64,000 nt of DNA from a virus. The notes beneath the pieces were generated by a model, which was not told where the DNA came from, ran no database searches, and saw only the letters and a list, made by a program, of their open reading frames with translations. The position numbers and the translations under genes were made by a program. Every line of letters starts with the position of its first letter. The stretch's first letter is position 1. This document shows, piece after piece, positions 15,657 through 63,556 of the stretch. Location of the stretch: the IMG/VR virus record IMGVR_UViG_3300044712_000336, positions 1-64,000 of that record, one strand, 5' to 3'.

Positions 15657-15782
15657 GTTGTTTTTAGTTATTGTTTAATAGTTATTAAGATTGTAGGTAG
15701 GACGTCGGCATAGGTGTGCCTCCGCTTAGTGGACAGGTATTCTTATTTATATACGCAGTATATTCCTTCACATAGATACTAT

Positions 15783-17934: not shown

Positions 17935-18007
17935 TTATTATTTAATGCAGCTATATCCAAAAAGATATAAGAGTTACAAGCCTCTATAAATGCAGAGTAA
18001 GTAATAA
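17935..18007 (+). ncRNA. Twister ribozyme, type P1
   Basis: P1 TTATTAT/GTAATAA; TT^AA cleavage loop; P2 TGCA/TGCA; P3 TATATC/GATATA; P4 AGAG/CTCT; L4 TTACAAGC; pseudoknots GC/GC and TTAC/GTAA. Confidence 0.9.
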
Positions 18008-18309: not shown

Positions 18310-18816
18310 ATGAGTAAAAATAGTGGTTTAAGGACTGCAAGGGATGATATTATGGCTAATATGTCAGCACAAATAGTACGTGAAATAGTTGCTTCTTCAC
18401 TTAAAATAAAAGCAACTAATGTTATTCTTAGCAGTGTATTACCTGAAAACTTCTGCGTTGAAGCAGTAAGTACATCAGGTTGTATGTATTCAAACTCTAA
18501 CGATTGTAGAGTTTGGGCATTTAATCCACAACAAGGATTGGTATTATTGCAGCAATCTGTTATTACAGAAAATGCTGCAAGTAATGCTAATGGTACTTGG
18601 GAAAACTCTTATGGATATACTTTTGAAATGCTTGCAGAACAAGCACCAGAAGCTATCTTCTTTGTAGTTATGGAAAGTTCAGATTACTCAGATTGTAATG
18701 GTAGAGATGAACATTCTATAAGTTATACATTATACAAAGCTCCAGACTTTAAAAGTCATTGGGCTAAAATCCAACAAGAAGCCATTGCTCGTTGGGAGCA
18801 ATGGTTGAACTCATAA
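18310..18816 (+). CDS. Hypothetical protein (start uncertain)
   Basis: Long ORF inside an otherwise non-coding region, followed by a hairpin at 18818-18853. Confidence 0.6.
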   Translation: MSKNSGLRTARDDIMANMSAQIVREIVASSLKIKATNVILSSVLPENFCVEAVSTSGCMYSNSNDCRVWAFNPQQGLVLLQQSVITENAASNANGTWENSYGYTFEMLAEQAPEAIFFVVMESSDYSDCNGRDEHSISYTLYKAPDFKSHWAKIQQEAIARWEQWLNS

Positions 18817-19011
18817 TCTAACAGGCATTTCTTAGGAATGTAAGACCTGTTAGTTTATAGTTAATATCATATATAATATCTTATAACAAAGTTGTATCTA
18901 ATCTTTGTTATAACTATCAGTAGATGTACTGATGTAGGCTATTTGGGTCAATAGCTGAAATGAATAGATAGTGGTGCATGACTGCTCAAACCAATTAAAC
19001 TTAAAAATAAA

Positions 19012-19092
19012 ATGATAATAGCATTTGTACTGTGTGCAGTAGGATTTGGTATAATAGTTATATCTAAATCTTCAAAAGTAAGAAATTACTAA
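19012..19092 (+). CDS. Small single-TM peptide (26 aa)
   Basis: MIIAFVLCAVGFGIIVISKSSKVRNY; strong A-rich leader like that of bona fide genes here. Confidence 0.45.
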   Translation: MIIAFVLCAVGFGIIVISKSSKVRNY

Positions 19093-19306
19093 TGTCTTAG
19101 GTATATACACATTTATTGGATAAATACCAATCATGTGTATGTCTTAAGGATAAACTAAAAGATGTTTAATTGAAAACAATATAAGTATTACAATATAAGA
19201 GGAAGAAGTCTATTGTTACATGCCGTGATAGGGCAAAAATACTATAATACTATCAAACCAAACTCAATAGAGCAACTCACAAATCTTTGAGTAATACTAA
19301 ACTTAT

Positions 19307-19810
19307 AGTAACAAGTAATAGAGTAATAAAGCAGAGGCAAAATGAATAAGTCCTAAAATGGTTGCCCGGAATAGTTGCTCAACTCGTGAGCCGACCACTG
19401 AGACTACAATTACTTGTTACTTACTTTTAATGATTGATACTACTTCTAATATGTACAATCTGGTATGGATGTAGTGCTTTAATTAGCCATCATAATCAAG
19501 TCAGATTATTAATCATTATTTAATACGATGATTGATATACAAACCCCCACTAAGTCCGTTTGGCGGTTTTAATACCCATGAATTGTCATGGAGTATATCA
19601 ATCGTTACATATAAAACAGTTAATAAAAGTGTCGGCATATATCAAGATCATACTTGTACCTAACTTGATATAGTATTATTAGGTGTTAACTGTTTTTAAC
19701 TTGAATTAATTACATCCTTAAAGGTTAAGAGCTTTACTTAATAAAAACTACATTAAATATTAGTAGTAATAAAAAAGTTCTGTATAGACTAAGAAATACA
19801 GTAAGGATGT
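19307..19810 (+). ncRNA. Array of five adjacent structured RNA modules, each closed by a 9-14 bp stem
   Basis: Terminal stems at 19307-19421, 19428-19518, 19527-19606, 19613-19696 and 19712-19810; spacers 6-15 nt; G-U pairs favour the plus strand. Confidence 0.65.
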
Positions 19811-19824
19811 TTAAGATATAAAAT

Positions 19825-19892
19825 GGACTATATCATAAGATTGATCACTTATGATATTGGAGAATATTGGTTCGAATCCAATTATAGTCCCA
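19825..19892 (+). ncRNA. Truncated tRNA-like element (acceptor stem + T arm + one hairpin)
   Basis: GGACTATA/TATAGTCC 8 bp stem; ATTGG-TTCGAAT-CCAAT T arm; TCATAAG/CTTATGA hairpin; no D arm. Confidence 0.65.
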
Positions 19893-19929
19893 ATAATAAA
19901 TCTAAAAGTAATAATTAAAACTTAAAGAA

Positions 19930-20550
19930 ATGAAAAAGAAATGTAAAGTAGTGAGGCTTCCTACAGAAAAAGCAACGTGGTCTAATTGTATTTGGTTAAG
20001 TAGAATTAATAATCAATTAAGATTAGATAAATCTTATAATATGTTACCCCAACATCTTTATATTATTTCAGACGATGAAGTTAAAGAAGGTGATTGGTTT
20101 ATCAATGAACAAATTGATGGAGATAAAGTTATTTGGCAACATAATGGAAATATTATACCTAATAGCAACCCTAAAAAGATTATCGCTACAACTGATAATA
20201 GTATTGGTATAAAACCATTTACCGTATTTCCTCAACCATCACCACAATTCATTCAAAAGTATATTGATGAATGGAATAAAGGTAATAAGATTGAATGGGT
20301 TAATTTGGAATATGAAGCTATTCCTAATGAATTTGATAATCCTTTTACTAATCCTAAAGGATTGGATAATTTTGAAGATGCTAAATGGGAACTCAAAGTT
20401 GACAAAAACAATTACATAACCCTTACTAAGATTAAGGATAACTGGAATAGAGAAGAAGTAATTCAATTACTTCAATCTTATAGAGAGTTTGTATGGGGAA
20501 ATGGTGCAACTCTATTTGATTGTACTAAATGGATTGAAGAAAATTTATAA
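19930..20550 (+). CDS. Hypothetical protein (KIIATT family, paralog of 21234-21674)
   Basis: Shares KIIATT...PQ motif with 21234-21674. Confidence 0.7.
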   Translation: MKKKCKVVRLPTEKATWSNCIWLSRINNQLRLDKSYNMLPQHLYIISDDEVKEGDWFINEQIDGDKVIWQHNGNIIPNSNPKKIIATTDNSIGIKPFTVFPQPSPQFIQKYIDEWNKGNKIEWVNLEYEAIPNEFDNPFTNPKGLDNFEDAKWELKVDKNNYITLTKIKDNWNREEVIQLLQSYREFVWGNGATLFDCTKWIEENL

Positions 20551-20554
20551 AATA

Positions 20555-20779
20555 TAAAGAATAACTAATGAGGTTATGGGTATTCTCTAAAGCGTGTACA
20601 AGAGAATCAAGGCTATTGGGGATAAACTGAACAAGGCATGATATGTCAGTAATCCGGTAATTAGTTATTCTTTACAATATAACAACTTAATGAAGAACAC
20701 ACTTACCTTAAATAAGTAAGAGAAGTTAGTGCAAGATACTTTAAGTATAAGCATGATAGTGAAATGTAATTAAGTTGTT
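20555..20779 (+). ncRNA. Two further stem-closed RNA modules
   Basis: 15 bp perfect stem closing 20555-20674 and 11 bp perfect stem closing 20681-20779. Confidence 0.6.
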
Positions 20780-21858: not shown

Positions 21859-21872
21859 ACATAATAAATAGT

Positions 21873-21944
21873 TGGGTATGTGATGAGTAATTGGATAACC
21901 TTAATACGAAAGTATTGATATTGGTTCGAGGCTAAACCTATTCA
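21873..21944 (+). ncRNA. Degenerate tRNA-like element lacking an anticodon arm
   Basis: D-loop-like AGTAATTGGATAAC, GAAA-capped hairpin, TTGG-TTCGAGG-CTAA T arm, weak acceptor pairing. Confidence 0.35.
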
Positions 21945-22369
21945 CTAACAGTCATAATATTGAAAGATTTATGAGCTATTTATTATTATAAGATAAATTA
22001 TTCTATAATCCAATGAAGGAAATTGTAGAAATACAAGAAGGATACTCAAAAGGGATGCAGATAACCAAAGTCTTAGAAAGGTCTGTATAGAGTAATTTAA
22101 TATCATTCCATCATGGAAGAGATATATAAAACTAACTTGAAATAAACTAAAGACAAAGTGTTCTAAAGTTTAAACAATCTAAGTAAAGTTAGTGGTGGCA
22201 GCATATATTATAAAGAAATAAGTGAAATAATCATTAGATTTTTCATAGAGAACTTATCATTTTTATAATACTATGCCTTATTACTAGTAATAGTAATATA
22301 GTAGTTGTTATTATAACAACATTGTGCAGCGAGTTGATGACTTCGCAATATTAACTAATATCTGAACTC

Positions 22370-23019: not shown

Positions 23020-23091
23020 TCGAAGCCTAATATTAATAGTTAATATGATGGTCTGCAATCCTAAGCCAATTGCACTGATGATGATAGCTTA
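23020..23091 (+). ncRNA. Type II hammerhead ribozyme (variant core)
   Basis: CGAAGCC...GGTC^ stem III; stem I TGCAAT/ATTGCA; CTGATGA core; loop I TAAGC pairs with 3' GCTTA (pseudoknot). Confidence 0.78.
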
Positions 23092-23434: not shown

Positions 23435-23747
23435 ACACATAAGTAAATTTGTTATGCTGAATTATGGTGAAATACATTTGAGATAATTTGTTTATTACTT
23501 GTGTTAAAAAAGAAAAAAAATCAAAACTACTGAAATGTTATTAATATGCCTCCTTTCTTAATTAATTATAGTTATCACAATATCTTAAATATTTGTGATA
23601 ACCTCCCATTATCTGTTGTGATAATATATAATGGGAATTTCTTATAAACATAATCAAATTTAATGATAATTAAAATTAATGATAAAAATAATCAAAAATA
23701 ATTTAAAACATAATCAAAATGAAGTATAAACTAAAAACTTAAAAGAT

Positions 23748-25385
23748 ATGAAAATATTAAAAGTTGGTGAAAACATTGAAATATGTGGATTGAAATATAT
23801 TGTATATGATAGTCTATATTGTATGGCTTATAGCGGACATAATAATGAATGTTTTAAAATTATTGATGTAGATAAAAAAAAGTTTACAACAAATATTTTA
23901 GGATATTATAAATCTGGTGATTTTCCATATTGTAATTCATTAGAAGATTTAACCAAACTTGTCAATGCTCTTAATGAAGAGTATGATAGACAACAGGGTA
24001 AAACAGTGGAAAAATTAGTCCAAACAAATATGAATCAAGAGGAAGCTTGCTTTAGTTGTAAATATATAGATAATTGTAATGAAGCACCTCATATAGGAAT
24101 TTGTCCTGCAAGCGATGGGCAACATTATCCAAAAGTTATAGAAGAAACTAAAAAATATGATTTTTCAACAACAATTACTAGAGCTGTAGAAAATAATGAT
24201 CCAAATATTATTGCTATAGAAACTGGTAAAAGTATTAAAGAGTTATGTAAATTAGTAGAAGCTGGTGATAATAAGTGTTTACGTTATAAATTAGACAATA
24301 ATCATTTATATAATTGTGATAATTTAATGTGCTTTCATTGCCCTTTATCTGAATTAACAAGAAATCTGTCAAAATCAGAAATTATATCATGGTTAAAAAG
24401 TAATTCTTTAGAAGTAAAAACACCAGAATTTAAAGTAGGTGATTGGGTAACAATGATACGAAATTATAGTGTTTTACAACCTGGAGAAATATATCAACTT
24501 GTAGAATGTCAAGATATAGAGCATACTTGGTGGTATGTTAATCATCCTACTATTGTTGTAGCTCCTAGAGCTAATAAAGATTTCAGACATGCAACTAAAG
24601 AAGAAATAGAATCTGTAACTAAAACAAATAAACCATTTGAATATAATAAATGGTATAAACAAGGAAATATATTAGAATATTTTTCATCTGAAGATTTATA
24701 TTATGGGTTTGATGTATATGGTAATTGGTTTAGTGGTAAAAGATTAAAAGATGGTTATACTAATGACTATTTACAAATAAATCAATCAAATTTTATTCCT
24801 GTATCAGATGAAGAAGCTAAAGAAAGATTACTTGAATATGCTATAAAGAAACACCCTATTGGCACTAAATTAAAAGAATGTTTACATGGTTGGGTAAGAG
24901 ATACTAAAATAGGTATAATAAAAGGTAAACCATATTGGGATCCTAATGGTATTTGGGCAATGGGATCTATTTATGAATTATGTATTTATCTCGATGGTAA
25001 ATGGGCTGAAATAGAATCTAAACCTATACAAAAAAATTGGGTTAAATGCAATACTCAAGAAGAATGGGATTTTGTATCTAAGAAATTAGGTAGAACTGAC
25101 CCAACTAAGTTTAAAATTTATGGTGATTGTATTAACTTATTATCACCTAATACCGCTAGGTTTAATAAACCAGACGAGTATTATACATTCGAAGAATGGT
25201 TAGAATTAAGTGGTATATCAATAGGTACAGTTGAGTTAGTGGATAATGGAACGATTGAAAGTACCACTATTGAATATATTAAACAACAAGAAGGTACTAA
25301 CAGAAATATTCCTATAGTAGATAATATACAAAACAGGTTCAAAGTTTCACCTGTGAGAAAAAGAAACTTACCAGAAATTTATTAA
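23748..25385 (+). CDS. Mosaic multi-module hypothetical protein
   Basis: Shares modules with 37687-39660. Confidence 0.7.
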   Translation: MKILKVGENIEICGLKYIVYDSLYCMAYSGHNNECFKIIDVDKKKFTTNILGYYKSGDFPYCNSLEDLTKLVNALNEEYDRQQGKTVEKLVQTNMNQEEACFSCKYIDNCNEAPHIGICPASDGQHYPKVIEETKKYDFSTTITRAVENNDPNIIAIETGKSIKELCKLVEAGDNKCLRYKLDNNHLYNCDNLMCFHCPLSELTRNLSKSEIISWLKSNSLEVKTPEFKVGDWVTMIRNYSVLQPGEIYQLVECQDIEHTWWYVNHPTIVVAPRANKDFRHATKEEIESVTKTNKPFEYNKWYKQGNILEYFSSEDLYYGFDVYGNWFSGKRLKDGYTNDYLQINQSNFIPVSDEEAKERLLEYAIKKHPIGTKLKECLHGWVRDTKIGIIKGKPYWDPNGIWAMGSIYELCIYLDGKWAEIESKPIQKNWVKCNTQEEWDFVSKKLGRTDPTKFKIYGDCINLLSPNTARFNKPDEYYTFEEWLELSGISIGTVELVDNGTIESTTIEYIKQQEGTNRNIPIVDNIQNRFKVSPVRKRNLPEIY

Positions 25386-26108: not shown

Positions 26109-26461
26109 ACGATTGTTTTCTAGGAATAACACTTGTCGTGAGATAACTGTTATTTTGTTATTTATAAATTTAATTTTAAATAAAATGAATAATATACAAA
26201 AGGTAATTGACAGTACAAATGGTAAGTTCACAACTGCTAAATGTGAACATATCTTTACAGAAGATAAACCAGAATCAGATATTATTAATAATGGATCATC
26301 AGTATCAATTGTTGTTGATAAGTTTATTGATGATGATTCTGGTGAAGATACTTGGGAAGTATTAAAATTTAAAAATGAAGATTTAGCATAAAGAAATTAG
26401 GAGATTTAGCTCAGTTGGTTAGAGCATTTACAATTTTTTATAAATAATAATTATTATTTTA

Positions 26462-26493
26462 TTTGCTTTTACTATTAAAATTTGGTAATTTTG
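26462..26493 (+). promoter_or_regulatory. Bacteroidota promoter inside the tRNA insert, upstream of HNH
   Basis: TTTG-N20-TAATTTTG exact consensus. Confidence 0.75.
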
Positions 26494-26533
26494 TAAAAAA
26501 ACTAATAATTAATTAATATTAAAAGCAAATAAA

Positions 26534-27016
26534 ATGAAAATTGAATTACAATTACCTTTTAGTAATGACTATAAAGTTGGTTATATTGTTACAAATAAAG
26601 AAAATAGAAAAATGATTATACTTGTTGATAATTCTAATAGGAAAACATCTACCGCTTATGCAAGATATTTATTATCAGTTAAATTAGGTAGATATTTAGA
26701 AAGTAATGAACAAGCTGATCATATAGATGGAAATAAATGTAATGATTTTATAGATAATTTACAAGTATTAACTGCTATTGAAAACACTAGAAAATATAGA
26801 GTACAATCAAATACTTCTAGGAAAATGATAGAGTTAATATGTCCTATTTGTGGAGTTGTTTTCATAAAAGAACATAATTTATCACATTTAGTAAAAAATA
26901 GTAACTTTACAGTATGTTCAAAAGAATGTCTATATAAAATGTCTTCTTTAAAAAAATCTAAAGAAGAATTAATAGACATAGGTAATAAACAAGTAATTCG
27001 TATATTTAGAAAATAA
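26534..27016 (+). mobile_element. HNH homing endonuclease with C-terminal zinc finger
   Basis: DHIDGNKCNDFIDNLQVLT..EN; CPIC...CSKEC. Confidence 0.88.
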
Positions 27017-27201
27017 AGTCGTAGGTTCGATTCCTACATTCCCCACTAAACAATTATTAACAATTAAAAACAAATTAAAATGATAGAAATAACATGTATT
27101 GGAAATATAACTCATAATGAGTTAGTATATTGTTGGGGTAAATTATTATCATTAGATATGATGTATCCATGTGCTATAGGAACACTTAATAATATTGAAA
27201 T

Positions 27202-27624: not shown

Positions 27625-27629
27625 AAGTT

Positions 27630-29155
27630 ATGAGTTGGTTTAGTAAAGAACTTCCGCAGATTCCACAAAGTGAGATTCCAAGTGAATCTTACAAACAAGT
27701 TGTAGTTAATAATGAAATTGTTTGGATGGGTACTTATGAAAATGAGAATCCAAAACAACCCGATTACACTAACCATCCTGAATTGGATTGGCATAAACAA
27801 GTAACAAATCCAATTGGTGTTTATAGTACTGATCATAAATTAAGGAAATAATGGAAAAATCATGGCGTATTAAAATAGAAGATAAGGTAGAAACACCTAT
27901 CTTTTATCCAGTTACTAAATTAGTAACACTTGAAGAAATTGAAAACAATGTTCCTACAGGAATAATTAAGCAATCTATTTTAAAATTACAAGGTGTTCCT
28001 TCCTTTAAAGGAACATGTAATGATGTAAGAAAGCGTAAAGAGTTTAAATGGAAGTATAAACATACTAAACTTCCAGAATTAGTTGAAGAACCTGAAATTG
28101 TCCAATAATATGGGAAAAGGGTTATTGTTACTATCATTGCTATTAGTAATGATAGTAACTTCTTATATTATATTAAAAGTATTAGCAGGATTATTACTAA
28201 TATTATTTTTAATACTCTTTTTATATGGTACACCTAAACCTTTAAAGTTTAAGAAAGATAGTAAATATCAGACAAACTTTCATTGAATTGTCCTATTGTC
28301 GTGCGAGGTTAAGTTATTGAAACTTAATATTTTACAATTTTATAAAATCGAAAATGTCCTATTAAATTAAAGTATATGAATTTAGAACAAGTTAAAACCA
28401 ATGTCTTAAATGATATTGAAAACGAGATTAGGCGAGTAAGCCCAAATCTCAATTATGAGTATAATCAGTTAGAAGATCTACTTAGAGTAGCATATCGTTA
28501 TTGGGATAAACAAAGTAAAATTCCGAGTGATATACCAAAACAAATGCTAGAGGATTCGGTAGATGAATTTATAGCAAAATATGGTAATATTATCGATAAT
28601 ACCATTGTGTTTAATTGGTTAGTTAAAAACATGAATGCTAGATCTTCCATGATATATAGTAATATACAAAACAGTATTGCTGTAAAGGAAGATAATCATG
28701 TAAGGATTCACAAGATATGTGATAAATTCAATACCCAATTTACTACATTTGAACAATTAAGTAAATATATCAAAAGACTTGAAAAGGAGTACGATGATAT
28801 ATTACTTAATGGTATTACTGTAGTAACTACAGAATCATTAGAAGAGTTATCTAATAAGTTTGGTTTTGTTGAAGATAATACTACTGAGAGGTTTAGTGAA
28901 CTTGTTTCATCACTAAAGGAACAAGAAAAACTAAACAATCAAGTAGAATTACATGATTTTAGTGGTATTATTGTTACTGAAATGAAGGAAAAAAAGTGGT
29001 TTAATGATATTAAACAATTTCCTTCAAATCAAAAACAATTGGAAAAAGTTCATGTTGTTCCTACATATATGAAGTATAAAGGAACACATATTCCTGTATT
29101 CAAGAAGAATAAAATCCAGTATGATTGGAAAGATGTACTTTCGATGTTAAAATAA
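27630..29155 (+). CDS. Run of hypothetical genes (27630-27851, 27851-28108, 28110-28286 TM peptide, 28376-29155)
   Basis: Packed co-oriented ORFs, no recognisable motifs. Confidence 0.55.
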
Positions 29156-52679: not shown

Positions 52680-53239
52680 TAAATTATTATAATAATGGAA
52701 AATCAAAGTTTAGATGAACGTAAGTTAGAAATACAAGAAGATATAAATGATTTAAAATCTAAATTATTAAAATTAGAACAAGAGTTAAAACAACTTCAAG
52801 ATATAGTTGAAGTAACTACTAAAGATTTATATTCTAATATAGAACAATATTTTACTGTAGAAGTGTTTTATAAATCTTATGAACGTATATTAGGCGGTGA
52901 TGGAAGATCTAGTCCTTGGAGTGAAACAGTAAAAGGAAATGTTGCTATAGTTAAATTAAATAATAAATATTATATAACAGAACAACAAAAAGAAATTATA
53001 AAAGAGTACATTTATAATGTATATAAACCAAATAGGATTAGCTTTGAATAATAATACAATAATACAATAATGGAAGAAGAACTACAAAATGAACCAATTA
53101 TTATTGATGGGTATGAATTAGAAGATTGGCCAGATGATGAACCGTCTTGTGAACCAGAGTGTCCAGAATCAACAGAAGATGATGGTATAGAATGTGAATT
53201 TGAAAATAGAGATGGTAGTTGGTGGTGTACTACACATAA

Positions 53240-53812
53240 TTGTTATGCGTAATGAATAATATTGAATTAATTAAACCATTGCTTTCCTTTAATAGCGAAG
53301 ATGATTTCTATCATTTACAAATATTAAAGAGAAAAAAAGAACATCCAGAATTAGGAAGTAATAGTTATGTAGTTAAAACATACTATATAAGATCTATTCA
53401 ACATTTAGAAAATATAATGAATGAAGTTATATGTATATGTGATTTTCATAATGCTAGAGCTTGTATAAACTTGAATAAACGAAGTTTTGAGAAGTTAGCC
53501 TATCAAATGTTAAAGAAAGTTACAGATTGTATATTAAATAAAGATTTTAAATCTGTAAGAAAATCTTATGAAAGTGTATGTGGTAGTTTTAGTAATGAGA
53601 AAGATAATAAGAAATGGATTATTGATGTTGATGATAAAACTACACATAAAGTATTAGAAGAGCATTTTAAATGGATTAATGTTCCTATATTAGCTAATAT
53701 TCCTACTAAGAATGGTTGTCATTTAATAGTAAATCCATTTGATATTAAATTATTTATTACTAAAAGTGATATACATAAGAATAATCCAACATTATTATAC
53801 TTTAAAGATTAA
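53240..53812 (+). CDS. AEP/PrimPol-like protein
   Basis: WIIDVD (motif I) and TKNGCHLI (motif II). Confidence 0.5.
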   Translation: MLCVMNNIELIKPLLSFNSEDDFYHLQILKRKKEHPELGSNSYVVKTYYIRSIQHLENIMNEVICICDFHNARACINLNKRSFEKLAYQMLKKVTDCILNKDFKSVRKSYESVCGSFSNEKDNKKWIIDVDDKTTHKVLEEHFKWINVPILANIPTKNGCHLIVNPFDIKLFITKSDIHKNNPTLLYFKD

Positions 53813-62857: not shown

Positions 62858-63556
62858 ATGAGTAAACATTGCCCAATAATGCAAAGAATGAAATCTAACT
62901 ATGAAGATAGATATAGATTTCATTTAACAAGAAGAACACCAATAATTATAAGATTAGATGGTAAAGCATTTCATACTTATACTAAAAATCTAAATAAACC
63001 ATTTGATATAGGTTTAATTGAGGATATGCAGAATACTACTAAATTTTTATGTGAAAATATACAAGGTACAAAAATAGGTTATACTCAATCTGATGAAATA
63101 AGTATATTAATAACTGATTATGATACTATAGATACAGCAGCGTGGTTTGATTATAACGTACAAAAAATATGTAGTATTAGTAGTAGTTTAGCTACTGCTT
63201 ACTTTAATCAATTAAGGAGAGAAAGAGAAATATATAAATTAGCTTATTTTGATAGTAGAGTATTTAATATTCCAAGAGAAGAAGTATCAAATTATTTTTT
63301 AGCCAGACAAAAAGATGCTGTAAGAAATAGTATATCAATGTTGGCTCAATCATTATATTCACATAAACAATTAGAATATAAGAATATTAATGATATGCAG
63401 GAAATGTGTTTTCAAAAAGGATATAATTGGAATGATTTGGAATATTATAAAAAAAGAGGTAGTACTATTATTAAAAATAATGAATGGATTAATATAGAAA
63501 CACCATTGATATTTACACATGAGTATTTTGAACAATTTGTAAATATTTATATATAA
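62858..63556 (+). CDS. thg1: tRNA(His) guanylyltransferase Thg1-like protein
   Basis: RLDGKAFH, YTQSDEIS, FDSR, RQKDAVRNS. Confidence 0.9.
   Translation: MSKHCPIMQRMKSNYEDRYRFHLTRRTPIIIRLDGKAFHTYTKNLNKPFDIGLIEDMQNTTKFLCENIQGTKIGYTQSDEISILITDYDTIDTAAWFDYNVQKICSISSSLATAYFNQLRREREIYKLAYFDSRVFNIPREEVSNYFLARQKDAVRNSISMLAQSLYSHKQLEYKNINDMQEMCFQKGYNWNDLEYYKKRGSTIIKNNEWINIETPLIFTHEYFEQFVNIYI

Follow-up and report, generated by a model that had tools for sequence, protein, structure and literature searches.

The first 64,000 nucleotides (nt) of the virus record IMGVR_UViG_3300044712_000336, hereafter the window, contain an array of six consecutive units between positions 19307 and 19890, each closed by a terminal inverted repeat and the last resembling the top half of a tRNA. 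The reading that fits this array best, and that is partly supported, is a tRNA-cluster-like layout of non-tRNA folds that is co-transcribed and cut into single RNAs. Stated in full, the array would be a plus-strand cluster of genes for small non-coding RNAs with the organisation of a tRNA cluster, in which the units are not tRNAs and a tRNA top-half mimic comes last, and we give this an even chance of being correct. The observations behind it are the tiled stems themselves, the tRNA-like unit, a twister ribozyme and a syntenic small-RNA island in related phages. The six units are as follows, with stem lengths in base pairs (bp), G+C (GC) content as a fraction and fold z-scores calculated against dinucleotide shuffles.

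19307-19421, plus strand: unit 1, 115 nt; perfect 13-bp closing stem; predicted three-way junction; GC 0.39; fold z-score -3.56
19428-19518, plus strand: unit 2, 91 nt; 12-bp closing stem with one G.U pair readable on the plus strand only; fold z-score -1.33
19527-19606, plus strand: unit 3, 80 nt; perfect 11-bp stem (13-14 bp including G.U pairs); two internal hairpins; GC 0.39; fold z-score -5.23
19613-19696, plus strand: unit 4, 84 nt; stem of 11 bp if perfect, 13 bp with one U.G pair; one internal 9-bp hairpin; fold z-score -3.43
19712-19810, plus strand: unit 5, 99 nt; 9-bp closing stem; three weak predicted hairpins; GC 0.24; fold z-score -2.66
19825-19890, plus strand: unit 6; 8-bp acceptor-like stem; fold z-score -3.7

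All six terminal inverted repeats described in an earlier note on this DNA are present where it had placed them, and the unit lengths of 66-115 nt and spacers of 6-15 nt that it reported were borne out. Unit 5 is the weakest of the six. Shuffled sequence did not tile to the same extent, a control that the earlier note had itself proposed. We searched for chains of stems of at least 11 bp with no more than one G.U pair, loops of 35-115 nt and gaps of up to 25 nt and, as the control, subjected the entire 104.7-kb genome to 30 block-wise dinucleotide shuffles. The longest chain comprised four units on the plus strand and two on the minus strand, compared with a maximum of two across all 30 shuffles. 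Perfect repeats of at least 11 bp number approximately 26 in the genome, eight of which fall within 2.8 kb of DNA free of open reading frames (ORFs). When the region 19290-19905 was folded as a whole, the six units remained separate closed domains (z-score -3.4).

The earlier note also held that the units have no sequence in common. This is nearly right, save for short patches shared by units 2 and 3, and by units 5 and 6 with units further downstream. Units 2 and 3 have 10 nt in common in their 5' arms (19428-19439 versus 19529-19538), whilst their 3' arms are two transitions apart, with pairing kept on the plus strand only. Unit 5 is alike at 17 of 19 nt to a unit at 21994-22099 (19774-19792 versus 22077-22095), and the T-arm region of unit 6 has 12 nt in common with a unit at 21861-21986. 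Such patches hint at duplication or patchwork recombination among the units. No direct or tandem repeats and no iterons were found in the array.

The downstream units just mentioned form one of two extra pairs in ORF-poor DNA (20555-20779 and 21861-22099), which extend the RNA-like region to approximately 18.8-22.1 kb.

20555-20674, plus strand: further unit, 120 nt; perfect 15-bp closing stem
20681-20779, plus strand: further unit, 99 nt; perfect 11-bp closing stem; 6 nt after the preceding unit
21861-21986, plus strand: further unit, 126 nt; 13-bp closing stem with one G.U pair
21994-22099, plus strand: further unit, 106 nt; 14-bp closing stem with one G.U pair; 7 nt after the preceding unit

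The tRNA-like unit 6

The acceptor-type stem of unit 6 consists of GACTATA/TATAGTC and an additional G-1:C pair, in the G-1:C73 geometry of tRNA-His. Its T arm (ATTGG-TTCGAAT-CCAAT) has a perfect 5-bp stem that abuts the 3' acceptor strand, such that, as in a tRNA, a 7-bp acceptor stem is directly adjoined by a T stem of 5 bp whose loop fits TTCRANY. The D arm and the 7-nt anticodon loop are absent, with one 7-bp hairpin carrying an 8-nt loop in their place, and unit 6 therefore cannot decode; nor is a CCA end encoded. The unit scored 26.3 bits against the Rfam tRNA model (RF00005), under the gathering cut-off of 29, and ARAGORN called no tRNA anywhere in the genome, unit 6 included. A custom scan found unit 6 to be the sole combination of acceptor stem and T arm in the genome. 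Acceptor stem and T arm together form the portion of a tRNA that is recognised by RNase P, RNase Z and the CCA-adding enzyme. An acceptor stem stacked on a canonical T arm is likewise found in tRNAs and in other top-half mimics, such as the tRNA-like domain of transfer-messenger RNA (tmRNA) and the t-elements of plant mitochondria. Units 1-5 differ from tRNAs in having no T loop at all.

Two side observations concern tRNA-related features elsewhere in the window. A gene for a Thg1-like 3'-5' nucleotidyltransferase (PF04446, E 3.9e-29) is present at 62858-63556 on the plus strand, in a phage for which ARAGORN called no canonical tRNA. At 26400-27045, also on the plus strand, a tRNA-like 5' half (acceptor strand and D arm) and 3' half (T arm CGTAGGTTCGATTCCTAC and acceptor strand) lie approximately 580 nt apart, with only five of seven acceptor pairs able to form; an ORF for an HNH endonuclease (PF13392) is located between the two halves, and a 16-bp hairpin is present at 26456-26535.

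The syntenic site in related phages and the genomic setting

Related loci, identified by L-numbers, were found through homologues of the gene directly downstream of the array (19930-20550, a member of phrog_15656). Upstream of this homologue, true tRNAs were present in L020, L041, L077 and L065 and a permuted tmRNA in L036, in each case immediately adjacent, and tiled stem-closed units in L004, L035, L042, L047 and L074. The arrangement in L074 comprised three stem-closed units (2391-2683; stem lengths 20, 15 and 11 bp), followed after 2 nt by a tRNA-like gene (Rfam score 56.5 bits, anticodon loop abnormal according to ARAGORN) and then the homologous gene, a layout that mirrors the array of the present phage. 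In related phages the site is thus an island of small-RNA genes. Adjacent stem-closed pairs in 70 non-redundant loci (438 kb) numbered 22 on the gene strand and 10 on the opposite strand, against 1-8 in shuffles. Stem density along the related loci showed no sharp peak upstream of the gene, and only the adjacency statistic stands out.

Comparison of individual loci revealed how such units vary. Between L047 and L054, the interior of one unit was 100 % conserved whilst its flanks were variable; the next unit had an unrelated interior with the closing stem kept, including a C-G to T-A swap. Between L045 and L028, a 128-nt unit was 97 % identical and the homology ended exactly at the closing stem. 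This unit was considered as a mobile element and rejected, its occurrence being limited to L045 and L028. Helices formed by chance in coding DNA served as a negative control and were mostly broken in homologues, with 480 pairs disrupted and 130 kept. With regard to tmRNA in these phages, permuted two-piece genes above the Rfam cut-off were identified at L036:2703-2927, the same syntenic site as the array, and at L033:4623-4871, and standard tmRNAs were present in the crAss-like contigs L022, L035, L051, L059 and L071.

The record from which the window derives is a 104,710-bp virus genome with direct terminal repeats, a completeness estimate of 100 %, a GC content of 25 % and a coding density of 89 %. 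Judged from its gene content, the phage is crAss-like, as marked by a block of head, portal and terminase genes, an ORF of 5116 amino acids (aa) and related phages of approximately 100 kb, which were retrieved via one common gene. It is nevertheless isolated: no DNA match to it was found among 50,697 phage records, the flanking proteins had no close relatives in IMG/VR, and the closest relative of the 206-aa protein, in a search of 5.8 billion clusters, displayed 43 % identity. Features referred to in describing its setting are the following.

0.6-8.2 kb, minus strand: genes for the major head protein, portal and large terminase
18817-19306, plus strand: upstream portion of the ORF-free gap, with several shorter hairpins (18813-18858, 18881-18913 and 19184-19251) and no recognisable promoter
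19930-20550, plus strand: downstream gene, 206 aa, phrog_15656, without a Pfam family; syntenic anchor for locating related loci
68.5-83.8 kb of the genome: 5116-aa ORF

The array sits in a 1113-nt ORF-free gap (18817-19929), the second-longest such gap in the genome, approximately 3 kb to the right of the meeting point of two divergent gene blocks. The gap is flanked by a 168/177-aa ORF without a known family on one side and the 206-aa phrog_15656 ORF on the other, and contained no ORF under code 11, with TAG read as glutamine, or under code 4 (TGA read as tryptophan). The GC content of the array is 0.30, compared with 0.19-0.26 in most intergenic gaps of the genome. Three other short intergenic gaps, at 15657-15782, 27625-27850 and 53052-53251, also have an unusually high GC content (0.32-0.35) and may hold further structured RNAs. 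Elsewhere, approximately four tandem copies of a 22-bp A/T-rich repeat (23644-23731) lie directly 5' of a 545-aa ORF at 23748; these appear iteron-like and could mark an origin or a regulatory site. The array itself was rejected as a replication origin since it has no iterons.

Probable transcript processing and alternative explanations

A type-P1 twister ribozyme was identified on the same strand as the array, 1.3 kb upstream of it.

17939-18003, plus strand: type-P1 twister ribozyme; 54.9 bits, E 2.5e-10, Rfam cut-off 67.2

The ribozyme, closed by a 10-bp P1 stem, is apparently an AT-rich variant with co-varied pseudoknot pairs. Its position upstream on the plus strand makes it very likely that a rightward (plus-strand) transcript is processed. 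Genes for RtcB, a CCA-adding enzyme or RNase III were not found in the phage genome, so any processing would rely on host enzymes. The strand is also reflected in the closing stems, in that the imperfect positions in units 2, 3 and 4 and in the units at 21861-21986 and 21994-22099 are all G.U on the plus strand. A search with the hammerhead model at 23020-23091 on the plus strand returned no match at E values up to 10, even when performed on 301 nt.

Several results weigh against the array being a cluster of small-RNA genes. Homologues of the units were not found by BLAST in 80 related loci or 50 whole related phage genomes, in which only the coding gene matched; covariance models of units 1 and 3 likewise matched nothing in those 50 genomes. 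In a BLAST comparison with the tRNA regions of phages T5 and T4, the T arm of unit 6 gave the only match, which was to T5 tRNAs. The internal hairpins claimed in the earlier note are predicted, but with closing stems removed the interiors were no stabler than shuffles (z-scores of -0.75, +0.34, -1.39, -0.16, +0.03 and -1.91 for units 1-6), and the signal therefore lies almost wholly in the terminal helices and their tiling and not in the interior hairpins. The minus strand folds equally well, such that thermodynamics cannot tell the strands apart, and the strand evidence from G.U pairs is modest because the ratio of G.U to A.C positions over 16.6-24 kb is just 6:3 (207:160 in relatives). Perfect stems of 11-15 bp are also what young inverted repeats at the DNA level look like. 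No recognisable promoter was found upstream of the array in scans with sigma-70 and Bacteroidota-type motifs, which were themselves uninformative for this region, and the plus strand inside the array contained no terminator-like site. Finally, a chain of three 11-bp stems is also present inside a 1352-aa minus-strand ORF, at genome positions 89367-89776 and thus beyond the window. This chain is probably due to chance, and it implies that real sequence is somewhat richer in such stems than the shuffles. Additional searches for the units by pattern were also negative: an exact-pattern scan of viral contigs found no match, and two scans of metagenome contigs returned nothing, or three chance matches in GC-rich unrelated contigs.

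The main rival to the small-RNA reading is that the units serve an early polycistronic message in cis, as elements for its processing or stability, the stems acting as RNase III-type sites or exonuclease blocks and unit 6 as RNase P/Z punctuation that frees the mRNA of the gene at 19930-20550. We consider this unlikely. Unit 6 ends 40 nt ahead of the start codon of that gene, further unit pairs are found directly after the gene and between small ORFs, and the upstream twister points to a transcript that is cut. Interiors that look unstructured and are unconserved among phages are also as expected if the stem alone matters. RNase III processing stems, such as those of the rRNA operon and the T7 early transcript, are likewise long-range helices that bracket a segment of a polycistronic transcript. 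The stems in the array, at 9-15 bp, are however short for classical RNase III substrates, which are continuous or coaxial duplexes of about two helical turns, and an RNase III gene is lacking from the phage genome. Moreover, five consecutive units in a row without an ORF between them go far beyond the needs of one gene boundary, and between L047 and L054 one interior is fully conserved amid variable flanks.

The remaining alternatives are less likely. One is that the units are inverted repeats at the DNA level with no role as RNA, either structures for recombination or replication or remnants of module shuffling between phages. The mostly perfect, strand-symmetric stems and the equal folding of both strands are compatible with this, as are the homology between L045 and L028 that stops exactly at the closing stem, like the end of a shuffled DNA module, and the partial sequence sharing between units, which suggests patchwork recombination. 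We nonetheless regard it as improbable, given that the units do not form a multi-copy family with common ends, that iterons and direct repeats are absent from the array, that the imperfect stem positions of the array units are all G.U on the plus strand, that adjacent units in relatives are twice as common on the gene strand as on the other, and that both unit 6 and the twister are plainly elements of RNA type. Arms that are 50-100 nt apart also extrude poorly as cruciforms. Miniature inverted-repeat mobile elements and an integron attC array (shared core GTTRRRY) were specifically rejected, as the ends differ in each unit and no copies were found elsewhere in the genome or in the 50 related phages.

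That the tiling arose by chance in AT-rich non-coding DNA, with only unit 6 and the twister being real, is in our view very improbable. Long-range repeats of 9-11 bp are common in this genome of 25 % GC, which contains 156 of at least 9 bp, and the chain of three inside an ORF, the near-zero interior z-scores and the unit 5 stem of just 9 bp would all suit such an origin. It is contradicted by the failure of any of the 30 shuffles to exceed a chain of two, by the concentration of eight of the approximately 26 perfect repeats of at least 11 bp in ORF-free DNA totalling 2.8 kb, and by the recurrence of tiling at the syntenic site of other phages, at approximately six-fold the level in shuffles.

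Lastly, at least one unit might be a self-cleaving ribozyme of an undescribed class, which we hold to be highly improbable. Neighbourhoods of twister and hammerhead ribozymes have yielded new ribozyme classes before, and the upstream twister, on the same strand as the array, has a 10-bp P1 closing stem of its own. Ribozyme classes are reported to cluster, as Weinberg and colleagues are said to have found in 2015. Against this, no Rfam ribozyme model matched any unit at E values up to 10, there are no conserved homologues with which to define a core, and the interiors are not notably structured. The known self-cleaving ribozymes (twister, hammerhead, hatchet, pistol, twister-sister and HDV-like) were rejected for the region 18800-20100, in which none of their models matched at the same limit. 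More broadly, Rfam searches of the whole window at gathering thresholds returned no match, and those of the array at E values up to 10 returned only the sub-threshold tRNA match and chance matches of the small nucleolar RNA type.

Comparison with known stable RNAs and proposed processing

The small-RNA gene cluster reading finds its closest counterparts in the small stable RNAs encoded among the tRNA genes of phages T5 and T4, which we treat as an operational class and not as a homologous family. In the T5 record (GenBank AY543070), rna1, rnaI, rnaIII and tRNA-His are arranged head to tail with 0-4-nt spacers, and rnaIV, rna2, rna2H and rna3 are located among the tRNAs; all are annotated as stable RNAs of unknown function. 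As in the array, these T5 RNAs are non-tRNA units (73-172 nt) that run head to tail with short spacers (0-19 nt) on the strand of the tRNA genes, and the rna1-rnaI-rnaIII array ends directly at a tRNA just as the present array ends at the tRNA-like unit 6. The predicted folds of RNAIII and RNAIV are multi-hairpin bodies (three hairpins) closed by a terminal helix of approximately 10-12 bp, whilst RNA1 and RNA2 are tRNA-like with a T arm. There are also differences: the T5 RNAs occur amid 24 true tRNAs, canonical tRNAs being absent from this phage, the closing stems here are longer and mostly perfect, and expression of the units is only presumed. In T4 (GenBank AF158101), the species 1 and 2 RNAs (rnaC and rnaD), also of unknown function, follow the order tRNA-Arg-rnaD-rnaC with 1-6-nt spacers. 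The rnaC product has paired ends as well as a T arm; the predicted fold of rnaD shows no clear closing stem, and T4 has only these two such RNAs.

The array shares with T5 and T4 the layout of non-tRNA units that lie head to tail on the same strand, with spacers of a few nt, contiguous with a tRNA or tRNA-like gene; unit sizes, closing helices and the mixing with tRNA-like units agree as well. The proposal in the earlier note of a tRNA-cluster layout with non-tRNA folds is supported in part by this likeness, by the syntenic tRNA/tmRNA island and by L074, and is weakened by the lack of unit homologues and by interiors that fold no better than shuffles. A further comparison can be made with bacterial and phage Y RNAs (YrlA, RF02553), the partners of Ro60/Rsr, which are small, have a long stem joining the 5' and 3' ends, often occur in tandem near tRNA genes and in some cases have tRNA-like parts. 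The array units have no common stem 'handle' of the kind seen in Y RNAs, and this candidate was rejected in the absence of a YrlA match or of a TROVE match in the complete genome, in searches whose positive controls worked. DUF2828 also had no match in the phage genome, which is uninformative as none was found in 14 control genomes either.

On the basis of these parallels, we infer the following course of transcription, cutting and stabilisation. The region would be transcribed within a rightward transcript that also carries the twister. Host RNase P would cut at the 5' side of unit 6, and RNase Z or exonucleases at its 3' side, whilst enzymes of the RNase E/G/Y type would cut the A/U-rich single-stranded spacers of 6-15 nt. 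Terminal helices of 9-15 bp would hold the unit ends together and block exonucleases, such that discrete stable RNAs of 65-120 nt accumulate, to act in whatever downstream role they may have. By analogy, such an arrangement would be that of the experimentally known stable RNAs of T5 (RNA1, RNAI, RNAIII, RNAIV and RNA2) and T4 (species 1 and 2).

As to function, the decoy, antitoxin-mimic and antisense roles put forward in the earlier note are unsupported guesses. Similarity to type III antitoxins (ToxI-like) was not found, there being no tandem direct repeats of approximately 30-40 nt and the units being unrelated in sequence, and no Rfam CRISPR-repeat family matched the units. An antisense role against the phage genome itself was rejected, since complementarity between the units and the rest of the genome was at chance level (no more than 14 nt). 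A part in the conflict between host and phage may be envisaged, as it would fit interiors that vary while the architecture is conserved. A more far-reaching idea, which we offer as speculation and think unlikely, is that crAss-like phages carry fast-evolving and previously undescribed 'stem-closed cassette' RNAs in the island that houses tRNAs and tmRNAs in other members, with a selected terminal helix and a lineage-specific interior of 50-100 nt. In an arms race against the host, the interiors would serve, for instance, as decoys for defence nucleases that target RNA or tRNA, or at least one would be a new ribozyme class alongside the twister.

Decades after their discovery, the small stable RNAs encoded within the T4 and T5 tRNA clusters still have no assigned function. 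This array alone, having units without relatives, is a well-documented example and not an answer. The crAss-like phages rank among the most abundant phages in many habitats, and a recurrence of this organisation in them would make it widespread and not a curiosity of two coliphages. Such recurrence would extend even to a phage without a working tRNA, and would provide many natural variants with which to probe the closing helix and the variable interior.

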